From a virus (taxonomy: Duplodnaviria > Heunggongvirae > Uroviricota > Caudoviricetes): a stretch of 64,000 bases of DNA. Numbering within the stretch: the stretch's first letter is position 1; the number at the start of each line of letters is the position of its first letter. Both the position numbers and the translations under genes were made by a program. The DNA lies in the IMG/VR virus record IMGVR_UViG_3300035698_015309. One strand, written 5' to 3'. Below the pieces are notes generated by a model. The model was not told the origin of the DNA. It made no database searches and saw only the letters and a program-made list of their open reading frames with translations. Shown piece after piece: positions 1-63,557 of the stretch.

Positions 1-256
1 AGGTTCTGGTGTGCCCAGATGTTCTGGGGGTGAACACATTGGTACTAACGATCACCCACGAGGCGTAAAACGAGTGCTGAGAGAGCGATTCCGTCTTCGA
101 CGGACCAGTTCCTTGGGATTCGGACGGAAGGAGCAACCGTCATCCGAGCCCTTACCGTTGGGCCGGAAGTTTACTACCGAGGTACTTGGGTCACCAAGAT
201 TCGGCACAGCTTCAAACTTGATGCCTGTTACATTCTAGCAGGTTTTAAGGAACGGT
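1..256 (+). mobile_element. Copy A of the tnpB 3'-end / omega-RNA scaffold + right-end (RE) module, truncated by the window edge. Ends ...AGGTTTTAAGGAACGGT at 256.
   Basis: Close nt similarity to tnpB 3' ends at 8940-9212 and 51530-51812 and to mini-elements at 18540-18802 and 35826-36100(-). ORF 11..238 is in the same frame as the TnpB C-terminus and stops at TAG inside the terminal hairpin CCTGTTACATTCTAGCAGG. Confidence 0.6.
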
Positions 257-1883: not shown

Positions 1884-1894
1884 CTCGTCCTCCT

Positions 1895-6617: not shown

Positions 6618-6683
6618 TCCTCCTGGTGGGCGTCAGTGCCCCTCACCTTAACTACTCTGCAGGTTGCCCAGATGATCCCTGGA

Positions 6684-6938: not shown

Positions 6939-7180
6939 TGGGTGCTCCTTTTTCGGGGTCATTTGCCCCTCACCCTTGTCTACTCTGTGGGTCGGGGAGA
7001 TGATCCCTGAAAGTCAGAAGGCACAACCCCTCTTTCAAGGAGGTGCCGTTCAAGAGTGGCATAGTCCACATGAGGAAGGGGACGGCGGAACGCATCACGA
7101 ATACGCCTTCCCTCAGGTGTCCTGATAGGGATGTTTTGAAGGTTTGGCCCCTTTTTCCGGTCCCCTGTTTTTCCCATCAC

Positions 7181-7717
7181 CTAGTCCTTTTCGTTTTCCG
7201 GAAGAGCGTGAGCCGTGGCCCTACAAATGTCCCGCAGGATCCCTCGGAGCACTTTGGCTTTGTTGTCTGCTTGTAAGGCCCTGTTCAGGGCCTTTTCCTG
7301 TCGATCCTTTTCCTGTACCCTGTCTGCTGTGGCCTTTGCCCGAATTGCCCGCTTTTCCGCTGACCTTATAGCTTCCACCACTATTGTTAGCGCCACATCG
7401 AGTGGTTCAGAGGGAAAGGGAACAGCGCACTGGACATGCTCATAGTCCCAACCCTCGTACTCGTAACTTCCACGAGTAGTGAGCAACTCCAGAGCAGCCT
7501 CAGCGTCCCCTTCTGACGCCTTCTGCGCCAGTTCAAAATGTTTCCTTCTGGTCTCCCAAATCTTGAGGGACTGCCTGTCATTTTGCAGTGCTCTTAGGTA
7601 GGGGTTGTGCTGGGCGTCCACAGCGAATTCCAGAGAACGTGTTTGGAGGTCGGAACGGGTCTCCTCGGAAAGGCTCGAAGGCTCTGGCCCTGGGTCGGGG
7701 TCCTTGACAGTACCCAA
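7181..7717 (-). CDS. hypothetical protein. TTG start overlaps the LE palindrome of the adjacent tnpB element.
   Basis: 178-aa ORF. The 5' end coincides with GGGTCCTTGACAGTACCC, so the true start is uncertain. Confidence 0.35.
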   Translation of the reverse strand: MGTVKDPDPGPEPSSLSEETRSDLQTRSLEFAVDAQHNPYLRALQNDRQSLKIWETRRKHFELAQKASEGDAEAALELLTTRGSYEYEGWDYEHVQCAVPFPSEPLDVALTIVVEAIRSAEKRAIRAKATADRVQEKDRQEKALNRALQADNKAKVLRGILRDICRATAHALPENEKD

Positions 7718-9212
7718 TTTAGTTGCTAAAATCTAACTATTCCTGCTTGAAACAAGAAGCAGAGGTCAGTAAATGAAGTGTCGCATCTTCCGACTTCACA
7801 AGGACACCAACCGATCTAAGATCGATAAGTTGGAAGCCCTGCACAAAGCATATGTCAAGTACGTCCGTATCTGCGTACAGACGATGCTCAACCAGCAAAC
7901 CCTCAACCTCCCGAAAGCCGCCAAACAAACGTTCTTCCCACGGGCTACTGATCTTACGTCTCAAATCGAAAAGATCGCACGAGACCATGCAATTCAAATC
8001 GTAAGTGCTTGGGCCAAAGCTACTTACGCTCGTAAATTAAAGCCGACTATCACCAATCTCAAGCATGACGGTACCCTCACCGATCAGGACGCCAAAGCAC
8101 TCTGTGTCATCGGGTTGAAGTCCATCAGCAAGCCATGGGAGTTCATCACCCAAGACCATCTCGATGCTTATCACACCCTGTTGGACACCTACGGAGGCAA
8201 CAAGCCTATCGTAAGGGACAACCTACCCATGAGGTTGTCAGAAATGACGGCTCGATTGGAAGACACAACTAAAGCTCCTTTGGGGGGTTTTTGGCTGAGG
8301 GTGTCCTCGTTGGAAGCTCGGAAATCCGTCTGGTTGCCTCTTGTTGGGAATCCTTACATCCAGCAGGCTGATCAGGTTAACAAGGGGATATCAGCCCGTA
8401 AAACCAAGAAGGGGTTCTGGCGCTTTGAGGCAGTTAGCAAGGCTGAGTGGACCATTCCTGAAGCACAGGAAGATTGGCCTAAGTTGGGTGTGGATGTGGG
8501 CTTGAACGTGCTTGCAGCTACTTCAGATGGCGTGACCTATGGTGAACACGTCAAACCTAAGTTCGACAAGCTCTACGCTCGTGTCAGAAATCTCCGAGCA
8601 AACCGCCAACGACAGGACCTGAAGGACAACAGCCCAAAGTTGGATCACCTTGAAAGCAAGCTGAGTGGGTTGATCAAGACAGAAACGGGTCGTGTAGTAA
8701 ACACCCTTATCGTCCGCCATCCTGAGACAGTGTTCGTGGTCGAGGATCTCGACCTTCGAGGTTGCCGAGGCCAAAAGCGGTTTGCTTACAGGGCGTTACA
8801 GACCAACTTGGAGAGAAAAGCCCCAACAGAGAAGGTGAACCCGGCTTATACGTCGCAGGAGTGCCCCTCCTGCGGTTACATTCATCGAGGCAACCGAAGT
8901 TCAATAAGGTTCCATTGCCGCTCGTGCGGTAGGAAGGCTCACGCTGATTGGGTGGGAAGTTCTGGTGTGCTCAGACGTTCTGAAGACGAACACATCAAAG
9001 CTGGCGATCATCCAAGAGGTGTAAAACGAGTGCTAAGAGAGCGATTCCGTGTTAAACGGACCAGTTCCTTGGGATTCGGGCGGAAGGAGCAACCGTCATT
9101 CGAGCCCTTACCGTTGGGCCAGAGGCTTACTACCGTTGGATCAGAGTCATTTGGCAGCGGCACAGCTTCAAACTTGATGCCTGTTACATTCCAGCAGGTT
9201 TTAAGGAACGGT
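7697..9212 (+). mobile_element. tnpA-less tnpB element (IS607-derived): LE palindrome GGGTCCTTGACAGTACCC with TTGACA-17-TAAAAT, tnpB, RE ending GGAACGGT
   Basis: LE shared with mini-elements at 18449 and 36179(-). The sequence just upstream of the tnpB ATG matches the tnpA 3' end / tnpB junction of the IS607 copy at 50340-50376. RE identical to the other copies. Confidence 0.7.
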
Positions 9213-9371: not shown

Positions 9372-9534
9372 GTGTGTACCGACCAGCTTATTAAACTACC
9401 ACTCAGTCGGTGGAATTGAACCACACCTTGGCTTTATCAGAGCCACGCTCGAACACGAGCTACGACCTTGTAGTAGGACTGGCTACCTACATCTTCGGTT
9501 TATCAGACCGCTGTTCTAGCCGGTCGGTACACAC
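9372..9534 (-). other. structured element bounded by a perfect 13-bp inverted repeat (GTGTGTACCGACC / GGTCGGTACACAC), immediately downstream of a minus-orientation promoter motif (9535-9565)
   Basis: Internal hairpins GCTCG-TGTT-CGAGC and GGCT-CTGATAA-AGCC, a T-loop-like GTGG-TTCAATT-CCAC, and a duplicated CTGATAA. Confidence 0.3.
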
Positions 9535-9982: not shown

Positions 9983-10004
9983 CTGTGTGTATAGGGGGGG
10001 ACAG

Positions 10005-12365: not shown

Positions 12366-12459
12366 AAAAGTCTGCGGACAGGGGTTCCTTTTGCGACTTC
12401 ATTGAGTAGTAAGAAGTGCCGCCGAAGAAACTCGGCTGGATAAACAGACGGAGGGACAG

Positions 12460-13131
12460 ATGAAAAAAGGTATGCTGCACGGGTTGGAAGTGTGGGGGGA
12501 CAATGCCTGCTTCTCCCGCCCAGAGGTGACGGAGCGGACCACCTACCCCATCCCAACCCACTCAGCCTGTCGGGGGATCTTCGACGCTATCTACTGGAAA
12601 AGGTCCGCCAACTTCTACTGGCAGATCGTCGGGGTAGAGGTTGTGAACCCGATCCGGTACATGGGGATCATGCGGAACGAGATGAAAGACAAGGTCACCC
12701 GCCGCACTCTTCAGGTTGATCTTACAACCCAGAAGCACCGGACCCAAAAGCACACCAGGACTCTCCTGGACCCCCGGTACCGCATCTTCGCACGGGCGGT
12801 CTGCCGGAATCCTGATGGGAACACCAACGCCATCGACGCCCAATTCCGTCGTCGGGCGGAGAGGGGCCAATGTTTCCACCAGCCCTTCTTAGGTTGCAAG
12901 GAGTTTATGGCCAACTTCCAGCTTGTCCCGGTGGATGAGCATGATCCATCACAGGGACTCGCAGACCTTCAGGTGGACGTGGGGGTGATGGTCTACGACA
13001 CCTTCAATCTGCTGGTGCCCGATGGAGATCCTTCGGTCAGCGTGTTCCACGCACAGATCAAGGATGGGGCCGTGGCCTACCCGGAGTTCACTGATAGTGC
13101 CGCCGTGTTCCGGCCAGGGGGTGCAGCATGA
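12460..13131 (+). CDS. cas5: Cas5c (Cas5d) type I-C pre-crRNA endoribonuclease subunit
   Basis: 223 aa directly after cas3. GLEVWGDNACFSRPE...YWKR resembles Cas5d N-terminal blocks. ATGA overlap with cas8c. Confidence 0.8.
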   Translation: MKKGMLHGLEVWGDNACFSRPEVTERTTYPIPTHSACRGIFDAIYWKRSANFYWQIVGVEVVNPIRYMGIMRNEMKDKVTRRTLQVDLTTQKHRTQKHTRTLLDPRYRIFARAVCRNPDGNTNAIDAQFRRRAERGQCFHQPFLGCKEFMANFQLVPVDEHDPSQGLADLQVDVGVMVYDTFNLLVPDGDPSVSVFHAQIKDGAVAYPEFTDSAAVFRPGGAA

Positions 13132-14960
13132 GTGGTATCGGACAGAGCCTCCTCAACTATGCCGCACACTATATGCCCCAGCAGGCTCCGGTGGGGTACG
13201 AGTACCTGACCGTCGTGGAAACCGTAGTGTGCCTGACCCCGGACGGGAAGTACCAGGACTGTCACCTCAGGGACACCAAGACGGCCTCCCCGATCCTGAC
13301 ACCTCGGGTGCCCTCCAATTTGCTCAGGGCCACGCCCCCCAAGACTCACTTCTTCATCGGGTATGTCCCCCAGGTGTTCCCTCTCCTCGTGGCCGAACCG
13401 CACGACAACACCAAGAACGAGGTGAAGAGGGGCCTCTTCCTGGAGCAGATCAGAACGGTCATCAAGGAGGTTCCCTGCACTCGGAAGTACCTGACCCCCA
13501 TCCAGACCTTCCTGGAGGACGACGAGCAGGTCGCCCTTGTGGTTCAGGCTCTGACGAAGATGGAGGCAGACCTCAAGCGGGCTGTGATCTTCCAGACCGA
13601 GGGGAAGAAACTCGGCATCCCGTTCCAGGACAAGAAGGAATGGCGGGAGTGGTGGGCGACCTACCTTTCAGGAGCGGACAAAAAGAAGAAGACCAGCGAT
13701 AAGACGTTCCGCTGCGTCGTCACCGGGGACGAGATCACGAACCCCTGCCGCATCCATCCTGACGGCATTGCCTTCGGCACAACGAAGACGAAGCTGGTTG
13801 CCGCCAAGCAGACCTCCAGTCACCACTATGGCCAGGAGTCTGGCCTCGTTGCTCCGATGTCAGACCAGACGGCGAGCACAATGACCCAGGCTCTGGTTCA
13901 TGCCGCCCAAAACGCCGGGACGGCCTTTGGGGATCTTCGAATCCTTGTGTGGGCTTGTTCCAGGGGAGAAACCCTTACGGGGAAGGCTGGACTGCTGGCG
14001 GGCCAAGGGCCGGTTCTTGAAGGGGGCGAGTGGACCCAGATCCTGTCCGACGTTATGTCCGACCTCTTGAACTCGGGATTGACGGATGGGGAACTCCGGG
14101 GTGCCACCCGGAAGGTGAAGGAATACCTGGACACGGGCACCGGACCGGGAGGTGTCCTAGACATGGACTGCACCTTGGGCATCGTTTCTAGCAACGGTCC
14201 CCGGTTGGCTGTCCGGCACTGGGAGACTGGACCCCTGTCCGTCCTGTTCAAGAACATCTATCGATGGTATCAGGATATGACCATCAGCAACAACCGCAAT
14301 GACACGGGGATCGCCCGCCTTTCTGCACTCTGGCAGATCCTTTCCGCTGTCAACGGCCCAAGGGGCAAAGCTTCCGAACTGGAGCGTGAGATGCTCGTTC
14401 AGGTAGCCCTGCGGGGCCAGTCGGTCCCAATGAGCATTGTCAAAAAGGCCCTGGTGCAGTTCCGGTCACAGTTGCACCTGTCCATCAAACCGTCAACCAA
14501 CATGGGGATCGCTCCGGCATTGCCGGGAATCCTCAAAACCTTCATCAACAGGAGAGGGAACACCATGTGTGAAGCAGGATTGAACAAGGACCACCCGAGT
14601 GTGGCGTACCAGTGTGGGCGGTTGTTGTCCGTCCTGTCCGAACTCCAGAGCCTCGCCATCGGTGGGAGGAACCCCCCGATGGCCCTGGCTGCTCAGTTCT
14701 CGTCCGCAACGATGCAGAACCCGGCCCGTGCGCTGGCCCGGTTACTGCTCCGTTCCGAGAAGCACGTCAACAAGCTCGTCCGACAGGGAAAGGGATGGGC
14801 GGATCACAAACGGCAGGAGATCGTCGACCGCCTGCCCACAGACCTTCCGACCCGCCTCGGCATCGAGGATCAAGCTTTGTTTGCCATGGGGTTGCTCCAC
14901 CAGCGCTCGTCCTGGAAGAAGCAGGACAAGCCCGCAGGGACACCCCCGATTAAGGCATAG
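13128..14960 (+). CDS. cas8c: Cas8c (Csd1) large subunit
   Basis: 610 aa between cas5 and cas7 in canonical I-C order. Size typical. No closer motif recognised by eye. Confidence 0.75.
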   Translation: MSGIGQSLLNYAAHYMPQQAPVGYEYLTVVETVVCLTPDGKYQDCHLRDTKTASPILTPRVPSNLLRATPPKTHFFIGYVPQVFPLLVAEPHDNTKNEVKRGLFLEQIRTVIKEVPCTRKYLTPIQTFLEDDEQVALVVQALTKMEADLKRAVIFQTEGKKLGIPFQDKKEWREWWATYLSGADKKKKTSDKTFRCVVTGDEITNPCRIHPDGIAFGTTKTKLVAAKQTSSHHYGQESGLVAPMSDQTASTMTQALVHAAQNAGTAFGDLRILVWACSRGETLTGKAGLLAGQGPVLEGGEWTQILSDVMSDLLNSGLTDGELRGATRKVKEYLDTGTGPGGVLDMDCTLGIVSSNGPRLAVRHWETGPLSVLFKNIYRWYQDMTISNNRNDTGIARLSALWQILSAVNGPRGKASELEREMLVQVALRGQSVPMSIVKKALVQFRSQLHLSIKPSTNMGIAPALPGILKTFINRRGNTMCEAGLNKDHPSVAYQCGRLLSVLSELQSLAIGGRNPPMALAAQFSSATMQNPARALARLLLRSEKHVNKLVRQGKGWADHKRQEIVDRLPTDLPTRLGIEDQALFAMGLLHQRSSWKKQDKPAGTPPIKA

Positions 14961-15020
14961 TCTCTAATGGCCTAAGGTGGGCCTTAGAGTTGGATTAGGC
15001 ATAAAGTGAGGAGAAGTATC

Positions 15021-16031
15021 ATGAAGGATCTTTTGATGTGGCTGAAGAGTGGGACGGCGGCAATCGGATACAGGTTCGAGATCTTGTTCCTGTTCGATTG
15101 TCTGATGGGGAATCCCAACGGTGACCCCGACTTCGGCAACCTGCCCCGGACCATCCCGGACACGGGACACGGGTTCGTCACCGACGTCGCCATCAAGCGG
15201 CGTCTCCGCAACTACGTGAGTCTCCGCAAGGCAGGCAAGACCCCGTACCAGATTTTGCTGATGATGAACACCTGTACCAACAGGCTCATCGCCAAGGCCC
15301 ACGAGGACTCCCACGGGACCGTCCCGGCGAAGGCTACCAAGCAGGAGGAGCGGGCGGCGGGTGACCGGATGTGCCAGGACTATTGGGATGTCCGCACCTT
15401 CGGCGGTGTTCTCAACACAGGTGCCAAGGCGGGCCAGATTCGTGGACCCGTCCAGGTGGTGAGTGCCCGGTCCCTCGATCCGGTATCCATCCAGGAGATC
15501 ACCATCACCCGCATGACCGACACCAAGGGCTCCCCTGATCCCAAGAAGGTCAAGACCCCCAAGGATCAGGGTTTCTCCTCCGCCCAGTGGCAGGAGTATG
15601 AGGACGGGGCCGAGGCGGCGGCTCTCCGCACGATGGGAACCAAGGCGATCATCCCCTACGGTCTCTTCGCTGCCAACATCACGGTGAGCGCTTTCGTGGC
15701 GGAACAGACGGGCTTCTCGGCGGAGGATCTGGCCCTGATGATCGAGGGTCTGGAAAACATGTACGACCATGATCGGACCTCCAGCAAGGGTTTGATGACC
15801 TGTCGGGGCATCTACATCTTCAAGCACGTCGGGACGGCGGACGACCCCGAAGAGCGGGCACAGCAGGCCAAGCTCGGGTGCGCCCCGGCCCATAAGCTGC
15901 TGGACAACGGACGCATCGTGACTGTGGTCAAAAAGGACGGGGTAGAGGCCCCGATGTCCTTCGACGACTACACTGTCACCGTGGACGAGTCCAAGCTCCC
16001 GGAAGGTGTCGAGTTCCGGGCCATCCAGTAA
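15021..16031 (+). CDS. cas7: Cas7c (Csd2) backbone subunit
   Basis: MGNPNGDPDFGNLPR signature near the N-terminus. AGGAG RBS before ATG 15021. Last cas gene before the leader and array. Confidence 0.85.
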   Translation: MKDLLMWLKSGTAAIGYRFEILFLFDCLMGNPNGDPDFGNLPRTIPDTGHGFVTDVAIKRRLRNYVSLRKAGKTPYQILLMMNTCTNRLIAKAHEDSHGTVPAKATKQEERAAGDRMCQDYWDVRTFGGVLNTGAKAGQIRGPVQVVSARSLDPVSIQEITITRMTDTKGSPDPKKVKTPKDQGFSSAQWQEYEDGAEAAALRTMGTKAIIPYGLFAANITVSAFVAEQTGFSAEDLALMIEGLENMYDHDRTSSKGLMTCRGIYIFKHVGTADDPEERAQQAKLGCAPAHKLLDNGRIVTVVKKDGVEAPMSFDDYTVTVDESKLPEGVEFRAIQ

Positions 16032-16227
16032 GGCCCTTTGCGAGCGGTTCCGTGGCGACGAAAACCCCGGAGTCGCTCGCAACCCAGAAAACCCCGTGAT
16101 CTGGGGTCGTTATACCGCAGCCGTTCTTTGATAACCGAACCAAACGGCTTGAAAAGTGACGGTTGGGAAGGACCGCTCGCAAAGGGGGCGGGAAAGCTGC
16201 GTCCCACAACGGTTTGCGAGGGGCACT

Positions 16228-17418
16228 GTCGCATCCTCTAACAAAGGATGCGTGGATTGAAACAGAGAGTACGTGCAGGCGTCCAGCGGGCTCAAGCCAA
16301 CGGAAAGTCGCATCCTCTAACAAAGGATGCGTGGATTGAAACGTTACTGCCCGCATGACACCCCGGATGAGATCACCAGTCGCATCCTCTAACAAAGGAT
16401 GCGTGGATTGAAACACTGTGGACCTGGCGGGGAAGAAGCCGACCTATGGTGGTGTCGCATCCTCTAACAAAGGATGCGTGGATTGAAACTTTCAAACAGC
16501 GACCCAGTCGAGTGCGACTTGGTGGGTGTCGCATCCTCTAACAAAGGATGCGTGGATTGAAACAAGTGCCTCGCCGTCAAGGATCCAGAGGGGAAGCTGA
16601 AGTCGCATCCTCTAACAAAGGATGCGTGGATTGAAACAGGCCCACAGAACGGCTCCCACGGCCTGGGGACGCCGTGTCGCATCCTCTAACAAAGGATGCG
16701 TGGATTGAAACGCTCAGAGGACTGCTCGACGGGACAAGACGGTCTTCCTCGTCGCATCCTCTAACAAAGGATGCGTGGATTGAAACTCGAAGTTGGGCGA
16801 AATCCAGGAATGACGGTCACAAGTCGCATCCTCTAACAAAGGATGCGTGGATTGAAACAATCCGATGACACTTCCCTTTCCTGTCCGCCCTTGGAGCGTC
16901 GCATCCTCTAACAAAGGGTGCGTGGATTGAAACGAGATCCCCCTTGCGACTCCCGCCCTGAAGGCGCTGGCGAAGTCGCATCCTCTAACAAAGGGTGCGT
17001 GGATTGAAACGTAAGCGAACTCCACCCCTGGTCCGTGGGTGACCGGTCGCATCCTCTAACAAAGGGTGCGTGGATTGAAACGCAGTGAGCCAGCGCCCCA
17101 CGAGCCATGCCTGCCTTACTGTCGCATCCTCTGAAAAAAGGATGCGTGGATTGAAACTAAATCCGATTTACGGGGAACTGGCTGGTCGGCTCACGTCGCA
17201 TCCTCTAACAAGGGGTGCGTGGATTGAAACGCTGATTCGGACTGATCCCTGAGAAGGCGCAACCCTGCCGTCGTACCATCTAACAAGGGGATGCGTGGAT
17301 TGAAACGAAACCGCAGCGAGGCAGAAGGGGTCACTCCCTCACGGGTGTGTGGATTGAAACATTAGGGTAGTAAGTGTAGACAACCTCGTCGTTCCCATGA
17401 GGGGGCGTGGATTGAAAC
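16228..17418 (+). CRISPR. Type I-C CRISPR array: 15 well-conserved 36-37-nt repeats (GTCGCATCCTCTAACAAAGGATGCGTGGATTGAAAC) plus 2 degenerate terminal repeats. Spacers 35-43 nt. Leader at 16035-16227.
   Basis: Repeat starts 16228, 16307, 16379, 16454, 16528, 16602, 16676, 16751, 16823, 16898, 16975, 17046, 17121, 17195, 17270; degenerate ends at 17360 and 17418. Distal repeats carry GGATGC->GGGTGC/GGGGTGC variants. Repeat ends in the I-C-typical GTGGATTGAAAC. Confidence 0.95.
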
Positions 17419-18401: not shown

Positions 18402-18430
18402 AGCAGGGCAGACGCAATATAAAGAGTCGA

Positions 18431-18816
18431 GTCGTATCCTTTGACAAAGGGTACTTGACAGTGCCCTTCATACCTGCTAAAGTCTAACTGTTCCTGCTTG
18501 AAACAGGGAGCTGTTGCGGCAGGAAAGCTCATGCTGATTGGGTAGGAGGTTCTGGTGTGCCCAGATGTTCTGGGGACGAACGCATCAAAACTAACGATCA
18601 TCCGAGAGGCATAAAACGAGTGCTAAGAGAGCGATTCCGTGTTAAACGGACCAGTTCCTTGGGATTCGGACGGAAGGAGCAACCGTCATTCGAGCCCTTA
18701 CCGTTGGGCCGGAAGTTTACTACCGAGGTACTTGGGACACCAAGATTCGGCACAGCTTCAAACTTGATGCCTGTTACATTTTAGCAGGTTTTAAGGAACG
18801 GTATGTGGATTGAAAC
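18431..18816 (+). repeat. Solitary CRISPR repeat split by a mini-element: 5' hairpin part GTCGTATCCTTTGACAAAGGGTAC (18431-18454) and 3' handle TGTGGATTGAAAC (18804-18816)
   Basis: The two halves reconstruct a repeat variant with the same hairpin. Insertion is at the stem-loop/handle junction. Confidence 0.65.
18449..18802 (+). mobile_element. Miniature omega-RNA-only element, copy B: LE palindrome GGGTACTTGACAGTGCCC (TTGACA-17-TAAAGT) fused by internal deletion to the tnpB 3' end/RE
   Basis: LE matches 7697 and 36179(-). Junction CTTGAAACAGGG|AGCTGTTGCGGCAGG identical to copy C. RE identical to the tnpB copies. ORF 18557..18784 is the in-frame remnant. Confidence 0.7.
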
Positions 18817-18934
18817 ACGATGTTGATGTTCCACCTTGATGACCTGACTCAGGAGTGGCCGCTCAGGGGGCTGGATCAACGCTCCTAAAAGTCGGGGCCT
18901 TGTGGTTGTGCGTTTTTGACGGTTAGGAGAACGG

Positions 18935-20315: not shown

Positions 20316-20542
20316 CATCGTTTCATTCTCCTCAGGGGTCATTTGCCCCTCACTTACTCTACTCAGCGGGGTCAGCAGATGATCCCATTGCACGTAAGGA
20401 TCTAAGGAAGGTGTGTCCGAAACGGCCCTTGAGCAAAGACCCCCAGAACTTTTGTTGATCATCTCAGATTCCGTTGGAGTAGTGTGGGTAGCCTGAGGAA
20501 GGCTCACTAACATCGGGGTGGACCCCCGAGAAGGAGAATGGG

Positions 20543-23301: not shown

Positions 23302-23751
23302 TTGGGACTCCGACAACCACCGGGGGTTATCATCGAAGCCCCACGTCCGTCCCTGTGCCTGCACCCGGACGATCATCCTTTATGGGAAACAATGGAACGG
23401 CTGGCTTGGGTTCTTGCGAACAGTCACGGTCTACCCCTCCATTTTGTAGAACCCAAACGTAGACCCCTGTCCGATGGAGCAGCGGGAGTATGCTATTGCC
23501 ACGAGAGGCGTATTGCAATCCGGCTCCGGTGTAAGGATCGTGTAGAAGACGGCGGGGGGTGGTGGTCGAAGCCAGACCCCTGGGATCAGATCGTATTGAC
23601 GGTTGCCCATGAGGTTGCCCACCTCCGACATCCCAATCACGGAGCAGACTTCAAGGACCTGGAACAACGCCTGTACCGAGAAGCTCAGGAACTGCTAGGG
23701 TGTTGGGATCATCCCCGGCACCCACAGAGTAGACAGGGTGAGGGGGAATGA
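23302..23751 (+). CDS. SprT/Wss1-like putative zinc metallopeptidase (HEVAHLRHPNHGADF)
   Basis: HExxH...H motif. Start uncertain (TTG 23302 or ATG ~23389). Confidence 0.4.
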   Translation: MGLRQPPGVIIEAPRPSLCLHPDDHPLWETMERLAWVLANSHGLPLHFVEPKRRPLSDGAAGVCYCHERRIAIRLRCKDRVEDGGGWWSKPDPWDQIVLTVAHEVAHLRHPNHGADFKDLEQRLYREAQELLGCWDHPRHPQSRQGEGE

Positions 23752-23770
23752 CCCCCGAGGAGGATCTTAA

Positions 23771-24346
23771 ATGAGTGGCTACCCCACACGATATACTGCA
23801 GAAGGTTGTGACAGCCAATGTGTGTACCGTTCCTGTATGTGGCCGGGTGAGGACAAGGGGATCCTTGCCCAGGGCCGGGGCTACACTCGTTATCACAAGA
23901 AACCGCTCCCCGTCTGTATGCAGAGACATCTTCATGGGTGCCCCTATCTGAAACCCAAACCAGACGTTGAGAACGCCCGATGTTGTTACGCACCCAATTA
24001 CAAACGTAAGGGCAAGGCTCCCTCAGGATGGCGTACCTGTGAGACCTGCGGAACAATGGTCCCCCTTCAGGTGGCCAAAGCACTTAACAACCTCCCAAAA
24101 CGGGATGGCGTTCCTTGCCTACATGAACAGGTAGAACCGTCCATCATAACTGGTTGGTTTGAGTGCCCCTCTTGTCGTTACAAGCATAAGGGTGTTTTCG
24201 ATCATCGGCCTCTCCCCTTTGAGAAACCGAACAAAACACTGCAAGAACTGTATGACACCCTGGAGGTGCGACTTAACCAAACCGCAGAGAGTGAAATGAC
24301 TCTTGAAGGCGGATCGGCGGGATCATCTCCCCGACCCACAGAGTAG
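23771..24346 (+). CDS. Cys-rich hypothetical protein ending ...GSSPRPTE*
   Basis: Full motif plus leader hairpin plus GGAGG upstream. Confidence 0.45.
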   Translation: MSGYPTRYTAEGCDSQCVYRSCMWPGEDKGILAQGRGYTRYHKKPLPVCMQRHLHGCPYLKPKPDVENARCCYAPNYKRKGKAPSGWRTCETCGTMVPLQVAKALNNLPKRDGVPCLHEQVEPSIITGWFECPSCRYKHKGVFDHRPLPFEKPNKTLQELYDTLEVRLNQTAESEMTLEGGSAGSSPRPTE

Positions 24347-24382
24347 TTAAGGTGAGGGGCAAATGACCCCTGGGAGGATGCG

Positions 24383-27631: not shown

Positions 27632-27704
27632 GAAGGAAGGGATCATCTCACCACCCTGTTGAGTAGTCCAAGTGAGGGGCAAACGTCCCCTGGGAGGCTC
27701 ACCG

Positions 27705-28094: not shown

Positions 28095-28180
28095 GAGCAC
28101 GACAAAAAGGGATCATCTCACCGACCTGCTGAGTAGTTAAAGTGAGGGGGCAAATGACCCCTGACAAGGAGACCAACGCA

Positions 28181-29868: not shown

Positions 29869-31734
29869 ATGCGAGTTGCATCCGTTGAGAAAGTACCGGG
29901 ACCCAGAAGAGCCTTTGATCTGACAATCCGCAATACGTCCTGTTACTTTGTGGGGCCTGGAATTTTAGCACACAACTGTGGGATGAGATACGAAAACAGG
30001 AAGCTAGTGCAGGCGCTGACACGGGGCGACGGGACGATAGGCGAGGATATCACCCGGAACGTCCTGCTGATGAAGGGTGCAGTCAAGGTACTGCCCCCGA
30101 CGTTACCGGATGGCACCCCCACCCCAGACGATGTGTGGGTGCGGGCCGAGGTTGTGGTGACCCACGATGACTTCGTCACCCACTTCAAGGGCGAATCCAA
30201 CCCCCGTAACACGGCGAGCGGCACTGCGAAACGTCAAACTGACAACAGCAAATGTGCCTTCCTGACGGTTATCTGCTATCAACTCCTGCCCGGTGGTCGC
30301 CCGATGGCGTCCAAGAGCGCCGAGTTGAAGGCCCTGGCCACGATGGGCTTCCAGGTACCCCGCTGGGGTGAGTACAAGGGACTGGCAGCAGTGGAGGCCC
30401 TCTACCAGGACTACATCGCCACCGTCAGGAAGAGCCTGGGTTACGATATCGACGGGCTGGTGATCGAGGTGGCTGACGCCAACGCCCGTGCGATGCTTGG
30501 GGAACTGAACAACCGCCCCAAGGGTGCCTGCGCTTATAAGTTTCCTCATGAGTCCAAGCCGACCACGCTGCGGAGCATCCGTTGGCAGGTAGGCAACAGC
30601 GGGCGCATCACCCCGGTGGCCGAATTTGACGTTGTGAACCTCGCAGGGGCGAACGTCAAACAGGCGAGCCTTCACAACATCAGCAACATCGAAGGGCTGT
30701 GGGGCAAAGCCACTGTTCCGGTACCCGGCGACGCAATTCTCGTTTCTCGCAGAAATGATGTTATCCCCTATGTAGAGGAAGTCCTGAACAAGTTCGGTAC
30801 AGGCACGGGACTCCGCACCCCGACCCAGTGCCCCTCCTGCCAGGGAGCCTTGGTGCGGGACGGCGAGTACCTTGTGTGCCGCAGCGAGGAGTGCCCCGCC
30901 CAGGCAACCGGGGCCATCAGACGCTGGGTCAAGAAGCTCGGTGTCCTACACGTTGGCGAGACCCTGATCGACGCAATGGTGGATGCGTTCCCTTTCACCC
31001 TCACCGAGGAAGTGTTTGAAGTCACCTTCGGCGTAAAGAAGGATGACGTGAAGACCCTCCCGGCAGCGGATCAGGAACGGATACGCAACGCCCCAATGGA
31101 CATCGCTGACCTCTACAACCTGGACCTGGACGAGGTCGCCTCCCTGGAGTTGAGCGGACGGCGTGTCGGCGGCTCGGCGGACAAAGCCCTCAGGAACCTT
31201 AACGCCAAGAAGACGCTGCCCCTGCACGTCCTGATAGGGAGCCTGGGTATCCCCCTGATCGGGCGCAGCATGGCCAAGGTGGTTGTGGACGCTGGATACA
31301 CCACCCTGAACCTGCTCTTCAAGGCCAAGGTGCATGTTCCCATCGTCACCAGGGGCAAGACCCTCCCGGCAGTTGCCAGCATCCCTGGAATGGGGGACAC
31401 GAAAGCGCTGGCCTTCGTGACGGGATTTGCTGCCAAGGCCGGGCTGATCGTCAAGTTGCGGGCCACGCAAGACCTTGGCGGAGCCGACATCACCATCCAG
31501 GACATCTCCGGGCCGTTGCTCGGGATGACCTTTTGCCTGACTGGCACCCGTGAACCCGCCCTGCTCGATGCTATCGAAAAGGCGGGTGGCACAATGAAGG
31601 GCAGCGTGTCCAAGAAACTATCCTACCTGATCGCCCTGGACCCGGACAGTACCTCGGGCAAAGCGAAAAAGGCCAAGCAGTACGGCGTGAAGGTGATCGG
31701 CTTGGACGAGGCGTACAAGCTGGCGGGGGTGTGA
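29869..31734 (+). CDS. ligA: C-terminal split-intein half (IntC, 36 aa, ...FVGPGILAHN) fused to the remainder of NAD-dependent DNA ligase
   Basis: Own motif plus RBS plus ATG. HN|CGMRYENRKLVQALTRGDGTIGEDIT continues LigA. C4 zinc finger CPSCQ...CRSEECPAQ and a C-terminal BRCT region present. Confidence 0.8.
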   Translation: MRVASVEKVPGPRRAFDLTIRNTSCYFVGPGILAHNCGMRYENRKLVQALTRGDGTIGEDITRNVLLMKGAVKVLPPTLPDGTPTPDDVWVRAEVVVTHDDFVTHFKGESNPRNTASGTAKRQTDNSKCAFLTVICYQLLPGGRPMASKSAELKALATMGFQVPRWGEYKGLAAVEALYQDYIATVRKSLGYDIDGLVIEVADANARAMLGELNNRPKGACAYKFPHESKPTTLRSIRWQVGNSGRITPVAEFDVVNLAGANVKQASLHNISNIEGLWGKATVPVPGDAILVSRRNDVIPYVEEVLNKFGTGTGLRTPTQCPSCQGALVRDGEYLVCRSEECPAQATGAIRRWVKKLGVLHVGETLIDAMVDAFPFTLTEEVFEVTFGVKKDDVKTLPAADQERIRNAPMDIADLYNLDLDEVASLELSGRRVGGSADKALRNLNAKKTLPLHVLIGSLGIPLIGRSMAKVVVDAGYTTLNLLFKAKVHVPIVTRGKTLPAVASIPGMGDTKALAFVTGFAAKAGLIVKLRATQDLGGADITIQDISGPLLGMTFCLTGTREPALLDAIEKAGGTMKGSVSKKLSYLIALDPDSTSGKAKKAKQYGVKVIGLDEAYKLAGV

Positions 31735-35769: not shown

Positions 35770-35825
35770 ATCAATGACACGAACCGATGCTGCTGCTATC
35801 CTTGACTGCCCCGAGGAGGTACTCA

Positions 35826-36179
35826 ACCGTTCCTTAAAACCTGCTAAAATGTAACAGGCATCAAGTTTGAAGCTGTGCCGAATCTTGGTGACCCAAGTAC
35901 CTCGGTAGTAAACCTCCGGCCCAACGGTAAGGGCTCGATTGACGACCGCTCTAATCGCCCGAATCCTAAGGAACTGGTCCGTCGAAGACGGAATCGCTCT
36001 CTCAGCACTCGTTTTACGCCTCGTGGATGATCGCCAGCTTTGGTGTGTTCATTCCCAGAACATCTGGGCACACCAGAACCTCCTACCCAATCAGCATAAG
36101 CCTTCCTGCCACAACAGCTCCCTGTTTCAAGCAGGAATAGTTAGACTTTAGTAAGTTTGAGGGGTACTGTCAAGTACCC
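35826..36179 (-). mobile_element. Miniature omega-RNA-only element, copy C (minus strand): LE palindrome GGGTACTTGACAGTACCC at 36162-36179, RE at 35826
   Basis: Reverse complement is near-identical to copy B including the deletion junction. ORF 35844..36071(-) is the remnant frame. Confidence 0.7.
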
Positions 36180-38704: not shown

Positions 38705-38740
38705 GTCGCATCTTTTGGCAAAAGGTGCGTGGATTGAAAC
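38705..38740 (+). repeat. Solitary CRISPR repeat GTCGCATCTTTTGGCAAAAGGTGCGTGGATTGAAAC
   Basis: Identical 5' GTCGCATC and 3' GCGTGGATTGAAAC. Stem-loop sequence differs from the array repeat but stays self-complementary. No second repeat within 200 nt. Confidence 0.8.
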
Positions 38741-39485: not shown

Positions 39486-39671
39486 ATGGAGCCCATCCTT
39501 CTGACTATCAACGAGGTTGCCCGTTTGTTCGGGATGCACCCAAATTCGATCCGTAAACTCATGGGCGATGGCAGACTACCCTTTCTTAAGATCGATAAGT
39601 CGCTGCGGTTCGAAACTGATGCCGTGATGCTATTTATTGAGAAACTCAGGAAACAGAGAGCGAAGGATTGA
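39486..39671 (+). CDS. MerR/excisionase-type HTH protein (IS607 TnpA N-terminal-domain-like)
   Basis: INEVARLFGMHPNSIRKLMGDGRLPFLKIDKSLRF. GGGAGAA RBS. Confidence 0.55.
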   Translation: MEPILLTINEVARLFGMHPNSIRKLMGDGRLPFLKIDKSLRFETDAVMLFIEKLRKQRAKD

Positions 39672-41067
39672 CGTCTTGAAAGTCACTCGCATTCTTCAGG
39701 CAGATGTTCCGCCTGCTTTGTTGCAGGTGTGTCGAGCTACCAGATTTCTTCGTGCAGATGTCTGGCGTCGGTACGGTGCCCTGAAGAACGTGGGTAAAAG
39801 TGCCTTGGCTATCCGTAAAGAAATTGTAGCAGGTGGCATCTACGTCACTCTCGCCATAGACGGGACCATACGTAACGAAACAACCAAAGATGTCGTGAAC
39901 GACATCCTGTTCTACAAAGCAGCAGCGAAAGGAAAGGTTCGCAAAGCCATTTGGCAGCGCACCGACAATGAAATGGAACGCAAACGACTCTACACGCTTC
40001 TGCGATCAGACGCATGGATGGAGGATCCCTTCCTTCACCGCCAAATGCGTAAACACTTCAAGCACGGCGTCTCACACACGAAAAATCAGTTTATCGTGAG
40101 GTCCGACAAATTCAAAATAGAGCACGTTAATGGGTATCTGACGATCGTCATCCAAATTGCCCGTAAATACGGTGACGACATAGTTCTAACGACAACGTCA
40201 AACGGCACGAGTGTGGATCTGAGTAGCTGTAACCTACGCATCATTGTGAAGGGTGGTACAACTGAGATCCACTACAGCGTGGATAAAAGCAGTGGGCGTC
40301 CGCATGGTAGCCGGACGCTGGGCGTTGATAAAGGCTACACCGAAGCATTTGTTGATTCGGATGGTGAGCATCAGGGTGAGCAGTTCGGTGCTGTGATGAC
40401 TGAGTACAGCGACAAGGTCAGCAAGACGGGTTCCGCTAGAAACAAGTTGTACGCCCTAGAAAAAAAGCATCGTCAAAGCGGAAACTCCAGAAAAGCTGAC
40501 AACATCAGGGCACACAACCTTGGGTGTAAAAAGATTGATGCTCGTAAACGATTGGCTCAAACACGACTACGGGGTGTAGCCTTTAAGGCTGCTCATGCCA
40601 TCGTGGATAAGGCAGCGGTGGTCGTGTCAGAAGACTTAACCTCTCCGATCGCAAAAAAGCGACCTTGGAAAAGGTTTAATAGAAGAATGAGTGGCTGGGC
40701 AAAGGGAGCACTTGCTGAGGCCCTCGATTCAGTTTGTACGCAGCGTGAAGCCAGCCATGAGTTGGTAAACTGTGCTTACACATCGCAAATGGACTCTGTA
40801 ACGGGTTTGCTGCAAGGCAAGCGTGTTGGAGACAAATTTTACCGTATTAACGGGGATGTTATTCAGGCCGATCACAATGCTGCGCTGAACGTGTTAGCCC
40901 GGTTGTCTGACAAGGACATCGGGTGTTTCACCCCTTATCAAGAGGTAAAACGCATCTTGTTGGCACGTTCTCCGGCGGAACTGACCGTCAAAAGGCACGA
41001 GTTGCAGTCGAGAGGCTCTCAACCGTGTGCGGATAAACCCTCACGATCAGGAGTGATCAATGCTTGA
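39637..41067 (+). CDS. TnpB-like RuvC nuclease lacking the zinc finger (start uncertain)
   Basis: RuvC-I LGVDKGYTE, RuvC-II VVVSEDLTS, YTSQ then no CxxC, RuvC-III IQADHNAALNV. Confidence 0.6.
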   Translation: MRNSGNRERRIDVLKVTRILQADVPPALLQVCRATRFLRADVWRRYGALKNVGKSALAIRKEIVAGGIYVTLAIDGTIRNETTKDVVNDILFYKAAAKGKVRKAIWQRTDNEMERKRLYTLLRSDAWMEDPFLHRQMRKHFKHGVSHTKNQFIVRSDKFKIEHVNGYLTIVIQIARKYGDDIVLTTTSNGTSVDLSSCNLRIIVKGGTTEIHYSVDKSSGRPHGSRTLGVDKGYTEAFVDSDGEHQGEQFGAVMTEYSDKVSKTGSARNKLYALEKKHRQSGNSRKADNIRAHNLGCKKIDARKRLAQTRLRGVAFKAAHAIVDKAAVVVSEDLTSPIAKKRPWKRFNRRMSGWAKGALAEALDSVCTQREASHELVNCAYTSQMDSVTGLLQGKRVGDKFYRINGDVIQADHNAALNVLARLSDKDIGCFTPYQEVKRILLARSPAELTVKRHELQSRGSQPCADKPSRSGVINA

Positions 41068-49310: not shown

Positions 49311-49460
49311 ATGGCCCACGAGTATGAATCCAAGCGAGCGACGGTCAAGGTCCTGCGTGCCGACAACTTCCTGGTTATCGTGACCGAAGACGGCGACATC
49401 TACTATTGCAAGCGCACGGGTACGCTCAAACACGTCGTCGGGGGCACCAAGGGTGCATGA
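49311..49460 (+). CDS. hypothetical 49-aa protein
   Basis: GAGTAGAC plus AGGAGG upstream. Confidence 0.3.
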   Translation: MAHEYESKRATVKVLRADNFLVIVTEDGDIYYCKRTGTLKHVVGGTKGA

Positions 49461-49538
49461 GCAGCAACCAAAAACCTACCTGACTCTCCTTTTTTCTCGG
49501 TGATCCTTTTATAACCTCCACGTTGGTATAGTGGAGGC

Positions 49539-49745
49539 ATGAAACGAACCATGATCGTCCGAGTGACCACAACCGAATTTGAAACGTCTGATGGACGGGT
49601 GATCCCACACCCCATTCCGTTTGATCCCGATGAGGTGCCTACCGTCGAAGAGTTCCAACAACAGTACAACAGGTGGCGCAAGGTCTTTGAAGATCAAGGA
49701 CTGGTGTTTCCCATACCTGATGCGGGAGATGAGGATGCTGACTGA
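49539..49745 (+). CDS. hypothetical small protein. 3' end overlaps the tnpA start and may be truncated by, or part of, the IS607 element.
   Basis: Hairpin CCTCCAC-N9-GTGGAGG embeds the RBS. Confidence 0.3.
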   Translation: MKRTMIVRVTTTEFETSDGRVIPHPIPFDPDEVPTVEEFQQQYNRWRKVFEDQGLVFPIPDAGDEDAD

Positions 49746-50376
49746 TCGTCTCCTAGCTCTCACCAAAGCAGCCGAAGCTCTTGGTGTTCACCGGAATACG
49801 CTTCGGGACTGGGCTGATGAAGACAAGATCCCTCACGTTCGCACCGTGGGTGGGCATCGCCGTTTCAAGCAATCAGACATTGACAGGTTGCTGGGCAATC
49901 TCCCAATCGATAAACAGCAAACGGAACGAGTTGTTATCTACTGCCGTGTGTCCAGCCACGATCAGAAAAAGTCAGGCGATCTTGAACGTCAGGCTGGACG
50001 GGTCACGATACACAGCATCACGAAGCAGTACAAGTTGGTCGAAGTGCTTCAAGACGTTGGGTCGGGCATGTCAGACACACGCCCAAAACTCCGAAAGTTG
50101 TTCAAACTGGTCAATGCCCATGAAATAGATAGGGTGGTTGTTGAACACAAAGACCGCCTGACTCGCTTCGGGTTCAATCTGGTCAATGCTTACTTCAACA
50201 GTCATGGTGTCACCATCGAGTGGACACAAGAAGTCCTTGGCAAAGGCTATCAGGAAGAGTTGGTCGAAGACATTTTGACGCTCATGTCGTCGTTCTCCGC
50301 TAAGATTTATGGCAAACGTTCGGCAGAACGACGTAAGGCCAAGAAAGCAGCAGAAGCGGCAGAGACAGTCAAATGA
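49720..50376 (+). CDS. tnpA: IS607 TnpA: MerR-like HTH fused to a serine-recombinase catalytic domain (start ATG 49720-49735)
   Basis: LTKAAEALGVHRNTLRDWADEDKIPHVRTVGGHRRF then VVIYCRVSSHDQ (catalytic Ser) ...RQ. Confidence 0.8.
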   Translation: MREMRMLTDRLLALTKAAEALGVHRNTLRDWADEDKIPHVRTVGGHRRFKQSDIDRLLGNLPIDKQQTERVVIYCRVSSHDQKKSGDLERQAGRVTIHSITKQYKLVEVLQDVGSGMSDTRPKLRKLFKLVNAHEIDRVVVEHKDRLTRFGFNLVNAYFNSHGVTIEWTQEVLGKGYQEELVEDILTLMSSFSAKIYGKRSAERRKAKKAAEAAETVK

Positions 50377-51797
50377 AATGTCGCATCTTCCGACTTCATA
50401 AAGATACCAATCAGTCCAAAATCGACAAGTTGGAAGTCCTACACAATGCCTACGTCAAGTACGTCCGTATCTGCGTACAAACGATGCTTGACCAGCGGGT
50501 CTATAATCTCCCGAAAGCCGCCAAACAAACGTTCTTCCCACGGGCCACCAACCTTACGTCTCAGATCGAAAAGAACGCACGAGACCATGCAATACAAATC
50601 GTGAGCGCTTGGGCGAAAGCTACTTATGCTCGTAAGTTGAAGCCAACCATTACCAACCTTAAGCATGACGGTACCCTTACCGATCAGGATGCCAAAGCAC
50701 TCTATGTCATCGGATTGAAGTCCATCAGTAAACCGTGGAAAGTTATTACTCAAGACCATCTCGACGCCTACCACACCCTGTTGGACACCTACGGAGGTAA
50801 TAAGCCTATCGTAAGAAACAACCTACCCATGAGGTTGTCGGAGATGACGGCTCGATTGGAAGATACATCGAAGGCCCCTCTCGGGGATTTCTGGCTGAGA
50901 GTATCCTCGTTAGAAGCTCGTAAGTCCGTCTGGTTACCCCTCGTTGGGAATCCTTACATCCAACAGGCTGATCAGGTCAGTAAAGGCATTTCGGTCCGCA
51001 AGACCAAGCGAGGCTTCTGGCGCTTTGAAGCTGTCAGCAAGGCCGAGTGGGCCGTTCCTGAAGCACAGGAGGGTTGGCCTAAGTTGGGCGTTGACGTTGG
51101 TCTGAACGTCCTTGCAGCTACCTCAGATGGAGTGACCTATGGTGAGCACGTCAAGCCCAAATTCGATAAGCTCTATGCTCGTGTCAGAAATCTCCGAGCA
51201 AATCGCCAACGACAGGATTTGAAAGACAACAGTCCAAGGTTAGATCACCTTGAGAGCAAGTTGAGTGGGTTGATCAAGACAGAAACGGGTCGTGTGGTGA
51301 ATACCCTCATCGCCCGTCATCCCGAGACGGTGTTCGTAGTCGAAGATCTTGATCTTCGAGGTTGCCGGGGTCAAAAGCGGTTCGCTTACAGGGCGTTACA
51401 GATCAACTTGGAAAGGAAGGCTCCAACAAAGAAAGTGAACCCTGCTTACACGTCGCAGGAGTGTCCTTCTTGTGGTTATGTTCATCGAGGAAACCGAAGT
51501 TCAATAAGGTTCCGTTGCCGCTGTTGTGGCAGGAAGGCTCACGCTGATTGGGTAGGAAGTGCTGGTGTGCTCAGACGTTCTGGGAACGAACACATTGGAA
51601 CTGGTGATCACCCACGAGGCGTAAAACGAGTGCTGAGAGAGCGATTCCGTCTTCGACGGACCAGTTCCTTGGGATTCGGGCGAAAAGAGCAACCGTCATT
51701 CGAGCCCTTACCGTTGGGCCGGAGGCTTACTACCGTTGGATCAGATTCGTCTGGCAGCGGCACAGCTTCAAACTTGATGCCTAGTAGATTCAAGTAG
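50373..51797 (+). CDS. tnpB: TnpB (RuvC + zinc finger), intact stop
   Basis: ~90% identical to 7773..9281. CPSCGYVHRGN...CRCCGRKAHADW. Confidence 0.85.
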   Translation: MKCRIFRLHKDTNQSKIDKLEVLHNAYVKYVRICVQTMLDQRVYNLPKAAKQTFFPRATNLTSQIEKNARDHAIQIVSAWAKATYARKLKPTITNLKHDGTLTDQDAKALYVIGLKSISKPWKVITQDHLDAYHTLLDTYGGNKPIVRNNLPMRLSEMTARLEDTSKAPLGDFWLRVSSLEARKSVWLPLVGNPYIQQADQVSKGISVRKTKRGFWRFEAVSKAEWAVPEAQEGWPKLGVDVGLNVLAATSDGVTYGEHVKPKFDKLYARVRNLRANRQRQDLKDNSPRLDHLESKLSGLIKTETGRVVNTLIARHPETVFVVEDLDLRGCRGQKRFAYRALQINLERKAPTKKVNPAYTSQECPSCGYVHRGNRSSIRFRCRCCGRKAHADWVGSAGVLRRSGNEHIGTGDHPRGVKRVLRERFRLRRTSSLGFGRKEQPSFEPLPLGRRLTTVGSDSSGSGTASNLMPSRFK

Positions 51798-52008
51798 GTT
51801 TTGAGGAACGGTTTACGCCACCCTCTCCATCTGTGTAAGAGACTTGGTGCAAACCCTGGACCCGAATGCTTTCATCCTGCATCACGACATCAAACACCCG
51901 CTGATCAGGGCTCTCCTGGCCAGCGGACTTTTCGAGGACACGGGTAAGGTCGCAAGCTACGGGTTCGTCTTTGATCGGCCCGTGTGGAAACTACTTAAGG
52001 AGGACTGA

Positions 52009-63520: not shown

Positions 63521-63557
63521 GTCGCATCTTCTGAAAAGAATATGCGTGGATTGAAAC
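63521..63557 (+). repeat. Solitary CRISPR repeat GTCGCATCTTCTGAAAAGAATATGCGTGGATTGAAAC (37 nt, GAAA tetraloop variant)
   Basis: Conserved termini. Divergent but still self-complementary stem. Intergenic between two minus-strand genes. Confidence 0.8.

Follow-up and report, generated by a model that had tools for sequence, protein, structure and literature searches.

The window analysed here, a 64,000-nt stretch of the IMG/VR record IMGVR_UViG_3300035698_015309 (Caudoviricetes), contains on its minus strand a 354-bp unit in which a short left end is joined to the last part of a tnpB gene. What such a unit contributes, and how it arose, is the question raised by this locus. A preliminary description had placed it in a family of non-autonomous elements that carry only a guide RNA. 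Our analysis also indicates that the 354-bp units, hereafter called mini-elements, are likely to have arisen by deletion from an IS607-type tnpB insertion sequence, as non-autonomous, MITE-like elements that give guides to TnpB in trans.

The window is phage-like and overlaps an IMG/VR contig, and many of its proteins have no matches. It encodes HNH endonucleases, a NAD-dependent ligase and a PARP-like protein, including the following:

3739-5097, plus strand: multi-HNH endonuclease
5070-6617, minus strand: PARP-like protein with WGR, regulatory and catalytic domains
29869-31734, plus strand: NAD-dependent DNA ligase

The mini-elements of the window are:

35826..36179, minus strand: mini-element C, complete at 354 bp, with termini GGGT...CGGT; found in the same context in 3 other assemblies
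18449..18802, plus strand: mini-element B, 354 bp; found in 10 contigs of other samples
1..256, plus strand: mini-element A, truncated by the window start

A BLASTN comparison of B and its flanks with the window identified five places, namely B itself, C on the minus strand, A, and the 3' ends of the tnpB genes of two full-length elements, D and E. B is 90.1% identical to C over 355 nt (E 1e-138) and 93.0% identical to A over the 257 nt present. Its identity to the tnpB 3' ends is 87.2% for D (8925-9213) and 82.6% for E (51520-51812). The 63-nt left end of B is 81% identical to the left end of D (7698-7760), just upstream of the D tnpB. In multiple alignments, the similarity between B and C ends abruptly, on the left outside GGGTAC... 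and on the right outside ...GGAACGGT, and the flanks are unrelated. The family of ~355-bp elements is thus real, as had been proposed, and alignment of A, B, C and the tnpB 3' ends places the limit of similarity at the element ends.

A full 354-bp copy of A is located in IMG/VR contig L004 (L004:3264-3617), which was recovered in a scan of the viral collection and whose bases 3362-6459 are identical to window 1-3098. Its junction is the same as in B and C, in agreement with the earlier statement that A has the same scaffold. A metagenome scan revealed a fourth mini-element in a related phage contig (L011:1198-1551), with the same junction and new flanks. The search of metagenomes for further copies, which the preliminary description had recommended, thus gave this mini-element and also the full-length relatives L005, L007, L009 and L010. 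The scan also gave contig L006, which overlaps the right end of the window and bears a third full-length element, F. An nhmmer profile and two further scans of the viral collection for diverged copies yielded only L004 and a truncated copy in L022 (L022:13024-13198; IMGVR_UViG_3300022890_000067). The L022 copy lies at the L011 site in a related phage and breaks off after ~170 bp; it is an example of decay, and some copies do decay. A DNA search of the INPHARED phage collection with the mini-element gave no match, and the right-end 19-mer had three matches among species-representative genomes, equal to the chance expectation. The mini copies are 86-92% identical to each other. They have no functional gene, retain the parental ends and occupy four unrelated loci with a common internal deletion, and in these respects resemble MITEs.

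The related phage contigs share another sequence with the window. They have in common a ~55-bp motif, GGGATCATC...GAGTAG...GGGGCAAATGACCCC, copies of which immediately precede an AGGAG and a gene start. Its appearance is that of a phage-specific promoter or of a hairpin in the 5' UTR, and it is located as follows:

window 6620-6680, 6955-7008, 20327-20389, 23704-23762, 24319-24378, 27637-27690 and 28104-28178: ~55-bp motif
L010:419-481, L011:407-479 and L022:11829-11900: ~55-bp motif in related phage contigs

The parent type of the mini-elements is represented by D. The full-length elements of the window are:

7698..9212, plus strand: element D, full-length parent type, left end as in the mini-elements, tnpB only
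7773-9281, plus strand: tnpB of D, stop codon lost, ORF running through the right end
49451..51812, plus strand: element E, IS607-type, autonomous-looking, right end same as in the mini-elements; its left boundary (GGGT at 49451) is inferred solely by comparison with L009
49735-50376, plus strand: tnpA of E, serine recombinase, followed by an overlapping tnpB
50373-51797, plus strand: tnpB of E, with the same right end as the mini-elements

The TnpA of E matches the NCBIfam IS607 transposase model NF033518 with 196 bits against a cut-off of 110. A longer, 251-aa call of the gene (49621-50376) contains an HTH domain at residues 48-91 and a Resolvase domain at residues 104-245, so that E encodes a serine recombinase with the N-terminal HTH expected of IS607. 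The mini-elements, D and F lack tnpA and can therefore only be non-autonomous relatives. The left end shared by D and the mini-elements is unlike that of E, the sole element carrying tnpA. Motifs common to left and right ends were considered as TnpA sites and rejected; one 9-mer (in E) and one 10-mer (in B) were the sole finds, and neither recurred in the other copies.

D, E, F and four relatives each encode an intact TnpB of full length, with the motifs LGVDVG, VVEDLD, HAD and CPSC...CRSC. A TnpB with the RuvC D/E/D triad and a zinc finger, as in OMEGA systems, is thus encoded on the same genome. The protein is 474 aa long and divergent. It scores above the cut-off for Pfam Cas12f1-like_TNB and just under the cut-off of 100 for NCBIfam guided_TnpB (91.5 bits), and its best sequence match in the PDB is a local match to Cas-phi. 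The closest TnpB relative in the phage collection, with 44% amino acid identity (tblastn), belongs to the 485-kb huge phage LR745208.1, in which three elements are full-length and one further copy of the same 3' region lacks tnpB.

Several other features of the tnpB loci were observed. In D and F, the tnpB stop codon TAG is changed to CAG in the terminal RNA hairpin loop (window 9190-9281; L006:4170-4219), and read-through past the right end adds 28 residues to the TnpB of D and 14 to that of F. A tRNA-Ile(GAT) gene lies just downstream of D (window 9400-9471, minus strand). A 68-aa ORF between the putative left end of E and tnpA (window 49541-49745) is conserved in L009, in which an E-type left end leads directly into tnpB without tnpA. 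A third, distant TnpB-like ORF at window 39637-41067 has RuvC motifs, has lost the zinc-finger cysteines and is not accompanied by a copy of the mini-type scaffold.

The way in which the elements are inserted assigns them to a family. In IS607, crossover takes place between GG dinucleotides, one at each element end and one in the target, a fixed nucleotide follows the right end and the target is not duplicated; the TAM of the IS607 element ISXfa1 is GGG (PMC10711439). Nine independent insertions have both ends readable, and all nine are arranged as flank, GGGT...CGGT, flank, without duplication and with variable sequence just outside. The four right ends in LR745208.1 finish in ACGGT. The elements thus carry GG at their ends and in the target and a fixed nucleotide after the right end, and produce no duplication. 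These junctions fit the published description of IS607, and judged from these sequences the family is of IS607 type. The guide model consequently follows the IS607 rule, in which the fixed flanking T belongs to the scaffold and the TAM is of GGG type. The arrangement known from the palindrome-associated transposable elements (PATEs) of IS200/IS605, with subterminal hairpin ends for a Y1/HUH TnpA and insertion 3' of a TAM, is not present. Conservation starts at the first base of the left-end hairpin, and no conserved 4-5-nt motif was found upstream of the elements beyond GGG, which is itself common to the element. No Y1 transposase was detected among the ORFs scanned, including those inside and adjoining the elements.

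The element boundaries are supported by the sequences that are restored when an element is removed. B splits a solitary CRISPR repeat into two parts:

18430..18452, plus strand: left half of the split repeat, GTCGTATCCTTTGACAAAGGGT
18803-18816, plus strand: right half of the split repeat, 3' of mini-element B

Removal of B with one GGGT kept restores a 36-nt unit, GTCGTATCCTTTGACAAAGGGTATGTGGATTGAAAC, of the same length as the neighbouring type I-C repeats, and an array repeat variant, AAAGGGTGCG, present at 16898, 16975 and 17046, holds the same GGGT. Without A, an ORF of 106 aa becomes continuous, and without D one of at least 221 aa that is read from the opposite strand. Empty sites were sought in contigs sharing a neighbouring gene, and the element was present in all of them: 10 of 10 contigs with the gene upstream of B, 3 of 3 with the neighbour of C and 4 of 4 with the neighbour of A. 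Searches with the reconstructed target proteins of D and A returned their own interrupted fragments and no uninterrupted homologue. With neither an empty site nor an uninterrupted homologue found for A, B, C or D, mobility and the TAM rest on reconstruction.

The CRISPR locus next to B is of type I-C (window 9987-17418) and comprises cas3, cas5c, cas8c/Csd1 and cas7/Csd2. The array beyond these genes has ~17 repeats (GTCGCATCCTCTAACAAAGGATGCGTGGATTGAAAC), which become degenerate towards the 3' end; the adaptation genes cas1, cas2 and cas4 were not seen at this locus. Three solitary, slightly degenerate repeats are located far from the array, at 38705-38740, at 63521-63557 and at the site split by B (18430-18452 with 18803-18816). 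Each is followed by unique sequence, and the copy at 63521 has TTGACA ~40 nt upstream. The solitary repeats may be mini-arrays or repeat-derived regulatory RNAs. The array spacer at window 17231-17270 matches LR745208.1 near 402,224 at 23 of 24 nt, within a GIY-YIG-like homing-endonuclease ORF. Part of the spacer is left unmatched, and its actual target is therefore probably a related gene of some other phage.

Two contigs show B in altered surroundings. L015:1000-1480 joins the left flank of B, a B/D hybrid element and the right flank of D. Such a junction would arise if the segment 9213-18448, with its cas genes, array and tRNA, had formed a circle or been duplicated in tandem; an assembly chimera would give it as well. 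In L012:3240-3760, B has a different right flank, a methyltransferase gene. Element copies may serve as substrates for recombination.

The mini-elements differ from D by the absence of 7761-8921 (1,161 bp). They retain the 63-nt left end and 291 nt that comprise the 3' end of tnpB and the right end, an anatomy that confirms them as internal-deletion derivatives of a tnpB element. The junction connects the left end, running to ...GAAACAGGGAGC, with TGTTGCGG..., and shows a 2-nt GC microhomology. Its position does not vary among B, C, the complete A and the L011 copy. The preliminary description had reported an identical junction in B and C; its common position holds, but the junction lies 3 nt further right than given there and the sequences are not identical throughout, because a single substitution, 8 nt inside the part derived from tnpB, separates C (GTTGTGG) from B (GTTGCGG). 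A shared junction with independent flanks, found in four copies, implies that the elements spread after the deletion, as had been argued.

The retained left ends and their promoters are:

36117..36179, minus strand: left end of C, 63 nt, with the hairpin GGGTAC-TTGACA-GTACCC and a sigma-70-like promoter
36173-36168 (-35) and 36150-36145 (-10, TAAAGT), minus strand: predicted promoter of C, 17-nt spacer, 10/12 matches
18449-18511, plus strand: left end of B, with the -35 at 18455-18460 and the -10 at 18478-18483

In a promoter scan, TTGACA-17-TAAAGT matched the consensus at 10 of 12 positions in both B and C. The left end of D is 75 nt long and contains TTGACA-17-TAAAAT. None of the seven aligned left ends of the D/mini type, including those of the four mini-elements, has lost either hexamer or the 17-nt spacing. 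The promoter had been described as part of a palindromic left end; the promoter match stands, whereas the palindrome of B is imperfect, with one mismatch (GGGTACTTGACAGTGCCC).

At the other side of the junction, the retained tnpB segment begins within the second CxxC of the TnpB zinc finger, and the first conserved RNA helix starts shortly after the deletion endpoint. A single 1,161-bp deletion would have removed TnpB codons 1 to about 382 and fused the promoter-bearing 63-nt left end to a complete omegaRNA/reRNA scaffold and the right end. The deleted element would then have spread to at least four unrelated sites.

The scaffold is predicted in the following segments:

35826..36116, minus strand: omegaRNA scaffold of C, last ~291 nt of tnpB plus the right end, from the consensus fold
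18512-18802, plus strand: omegaRNA scaffold of B, part of mini-element B

Eleven distinct copies, four from mini-elements and seven from full-length elements, are 74-95% identical and were aligned and folded with RNAalifold. The consensus fold contains 87 pairs, with 98.6% of the cells paired and 11 compensatory pairs. None of 500 shuffles of this alignment matched the observed pairing or covariation score, and sliding the partner strands by 1-3 columns as a control reduced pairing to 33-48%. When the four LR745208.1 relatives were added, 28 of 65 pairs were compensatory. These include helices of the 5' third and a long-range helix whose 5' strand lies ~8 nt from the mini junction. The predicted transcript of B folds at -126.5 kcal/mol (z = -4.7). 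The covariation noted earlier for the terminal hairpin is thus confirmed and extends far beyond it. A structured RNA that overlaps the tnpB 3' end and ends at the right end is characteristic of OMEGA systems. It did not match the covariance models of described Rfam families, such as RAGATH-18 and the IS605-orfB motifs; no Rfam model matched at the gathering threshold in the window, and none of relevance matched B up to E = 10. With a helix strand close to the junction and covariation over the whole segment, the deletion left the entire scaffold and little else.

The folded scaffold bears on the possibility that the mini-elements are dead remnants, that is, recently amplified MITEs without function whose conservation reflects youth and gene conversion. 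Blocks of variants common to mini-elements and full-length copies form mosaics, from which gene conversion between the two seems evident, and such conversion could keep the RNA structure without selection on the mini-elements. The truncated L022 copy would also be in keeping with loss of function. On the other hand, at 86-92% identity the copies are not very young, and among the four mini-elements alone, 20 of 23 variable pairs are canonical in every copy, with variation in 15% of paired columns vs 24% of unpaired columns. All four mini-elements have preserved both promoter hexamers and their spacing, the deletion ends just 5' of the first conserved helix, and in another huge phage an independent scaffold copy without tnpB has the same starting point. 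We therefore regard the dead-remnant explanation as unlikely, though it is the strongest of the alternatives.

The promoter could alternatively be the functional part, with the mini-elements acting as mobile outward-reading promoters or antisense generators, transcribed through the right end into neighbouring DNA. At A, C and D such transcripts would be antisense to the 5' portions of the convergent ORFs, and at B they would read out into the CRISPR half-repeat and a spacer-like flank. The strong promoter match is indeed directed outward through the right end, which at A, C and D adjoins the initial 20-30 codons of an oppositely oriented ORF. This function would leave ~290 nt of retained, covarying RNA structure unexplained, however, and silencing would be redundant at A and D, where the flanking ORFs are already interrupted by the element. 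Outward transcription as the purpose of the mini-elements is accordingly very improbable.

A product might also be translated from the retained segment. The following ORFs were called:

18557-18784, plus strand: 75-aa ORF in B
35844-36071, minus strand: 75-aa ORF in C

The tnpB reading frame is open over the whole retained segment in all four mini-elements and could encode a C-terminal TnpB fragment of 75-98 aa, composed of half of the zinc finger, the RuvC-III motif and the tail, that might serve, for example, as a TnpB modulator. Yet neither an ATG at a conserved position nor a ribosome-binding site was found for the mini ORFs, and the upstream in-frame start is TTG in A and CTG in B. Residues invariant in all seven full-length TnpBs are replaced in the mini-elements: a zinc-ligand Cys by Tyr, a His adjoining the catalytic Asp by Tyr, a Leu by Pro and an Arg by Cys. 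The lack of indels is expected anyhow from a conserved structured RNA. A small protein is slightly less probable still than outward transcription. Constraint in the mini-elements is on the RNA and not on the protein, for which it is relaxed, and the earlier view that the 75-aa ORFs are conserved only because the DNA is conserved is supported.

Finally, such repeats can produce chimeric assemblies, as L015 and L012 might suggest, but the interpretation of the copies as segmental duplications or assembly artefacts is effectively refuted, because the flanks are independent and diverge exactly at the element ends in every copy, and because independent assemblies from several samples show each of A, B and C in unchanged surroundings.

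If the mini-elements are guide-bearing derivatives of an IS607-type element, their guides follow from the DNA flanking the right end. According to the TnpB/IS607 rule (PMC10711439), the predicted guides are:

35806..35825, minus strand: predicted guide of C, TGAGTACCTCCTCGGGGCAG, DNA flanking the right end
18803..18822, plus strand: predicted guide of B, ATGTGGATTGAAACACGATG, 3' half of the CRISPR repeat plus 6 nt
257-276, plus strand: predicted guide of A, AGGGTTTGTCCGTGAGGATT

The guides proposed earlier agree with these, except that the guide of B starts one base earlier (ATGTGG...). In the window and the overlapping contigs L004 and L006, the sole close match of the C guide is its own flank. 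The B guide matches the array repeats only from position 3 onward. A match of the A guide at 15 of 16 positions at 53055 (minus strand) was judged to be due to chance; it lacks GGGT and lies in the gene of an unrelated HExxH protein. The search for guide targets elsewhere, which the preliminary description had recommended, thus gave nothing convincing as a second target in the window, L004 and L006. The mini-elements had been said to retarget TnpB to the flanking sequence. A guide taken from the right-end flank would be what TnpB systems ordinarily use, and the target is not a new one, as the predicted guide matches the vacated site of the element itself.

By analogy with the established biology of TnpB and IS607 (Karvelis 2021; Altae-Tran 2021; Meers et al. 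2023; Yoon et al. 2023, PMC10711439), the left-end promoter would transcribe the scaffold and read about 16-20 nt into the right flank. Each mini-element is probably a guide source for the TnpB of full-length copies nearby, which would bind the mini RNA in trans. The complex would cut alleles in which GGG(T) adjoins the flank, as is the case where the element has left or never been inserted. An occupied site would escape cutting, since its right junction has CGGT instead. Recombinational repair from an occupied copy would then restore or spread the insertion. Movement to new GG sites would require an IS607 serine recombinase in trans, and the junction of an excised mini circle is expected to read ...AACGGTAC.... 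In the phage, the complex would naturally act on sister genomes from which the element has been excised and on co-infecting relatives without the insertion. Transcription, TnpB loading, cleavage and mobilisation of the mini-elements are all inferred in this way.

Guide-RNA-bearing non-autonomous elements have already been published for IS200/IS605. PATEs often encode omegaRNAs that TnpB must use in trans (Meers et al. 2023, bioRxiv 10.1101/2023.03.14.532601). Like the PATE-like elements of Geobacillus stearothermophilus described in that study, the mini-elements have no protein gene, retain parental ends and an omegaRNA scaffold, and would borrow TnpB and a transposase. PATE-like elements have subterminal hairpin ends, depend on a Y1 (HUH) transposase and insert as single strands next to the TAM. 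The mini-elements differ in their IS607-type GGGT...CGGT termini, in the serine recombinase encoded on the same genome, in their origin by simple deletion, with fusion of the parental promoter to the scaffold, and in the phage-like genome that carries them. ISXfa1 and other IS607 TnpB-reRNA systems (PMC10711439; RAGATH-18-derived reRNAs, PMC11061315) share with them the GG at the ends and in the target, the absence of duplication, the fixed nucleotide after the right end, the GGG-type motif upstream of the target and a reRNA overlapping the tnpB 3' end. Those known systems are full-length elements with reRNAs of ~150 nt, whereas here the scaffold is ~280 nt long, has no Rfam match and belongs with a divergent 474-aa TnpB. 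New in the present case are the IS607-type termini, the clean promoter-scaffold-end architecture from one deletion and the setting in a CRISPR-bearing phage. A literature search of incomplete coverage found no description of IS607-derived guide-only elements.

Two other known systems are comparable. Cutting and homing between phage alleles has been termed 'non-restorative homing' (review, PMC13565253). As with phage homing endonuclease genes and transposon homing (PMC13565253), the element-less allele is predicted to be cut and the element copied in by repair; unlike in homing endonucleases, the RNA guide would be on the mobile unit itself and the nuclease gene elsewhere. Phage CRISPR mini-arrays and solitary repeats are likewise short promoter-driven guide modules with an effector encoded elsewhere. 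The mini-elements, by contrast, have no repeats, spacers or adaptation, their guide is set by the insertion site, and their scaffold is derived from tnpB.

The tnpB-less copy in LR745208.1 is located as follows:

LR745208.1 374413-374718 (L034:24413-24718), minus strand: tnpB-less scaffold copy, homology starting at the same zinc-finger codons as in the mini-elements

Its upstream sequence does not align with the left end of the full-length elements of that phage and has no promoter match. Judged from its sequence, it is a tnpB-less scaffold copy and not a proven mini-element. The occurrence of such a scaffold in a second, unrelated huge phage hints that guide modules are recurrent.

A broader role is conceivable, though doubtful: TnpB in this phage lineage may be a multi-guide nuclease system, in which tnpB-less, promoter-driven modules serve as independent 'guide genes' and direct the cutting of co-infecting phages without the insertion. 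If so, the competitor would be excluded, or the element and linked phage markers would be driven into its genome, an RNA-guided analogue of the marker exclusion brought about by phage homing endonucleases. Scattered scaffold-plus-guide units served by one effector would then model, in living form, an early stage on the way from TnpB to a CRISPR-like system with many guides per effector.

As guide-bearing deletion derivatives, the mini-elements would provide a natural example in which the guide RNA of a TnpB transposon is separable from the nuclease gene, yet kept intact by selection, the deletion leaving exactly a promoter, the whole scaffold and the ends. They would extend the idea of guide-only elements from IS200/IS605 to the IS607 type and to a CRISPR-bearing phage. 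In practical terms, the deletion endpoint and the covariation map bound a ~280-nt scaffold for the divergent, long TnpB clade of huge phages, and the logic of the GGGT/CGGT junctions predicts the TAM. Conceptually, the mini-elements may offer a testable system for RNA-guided homing between co-infecting phages.
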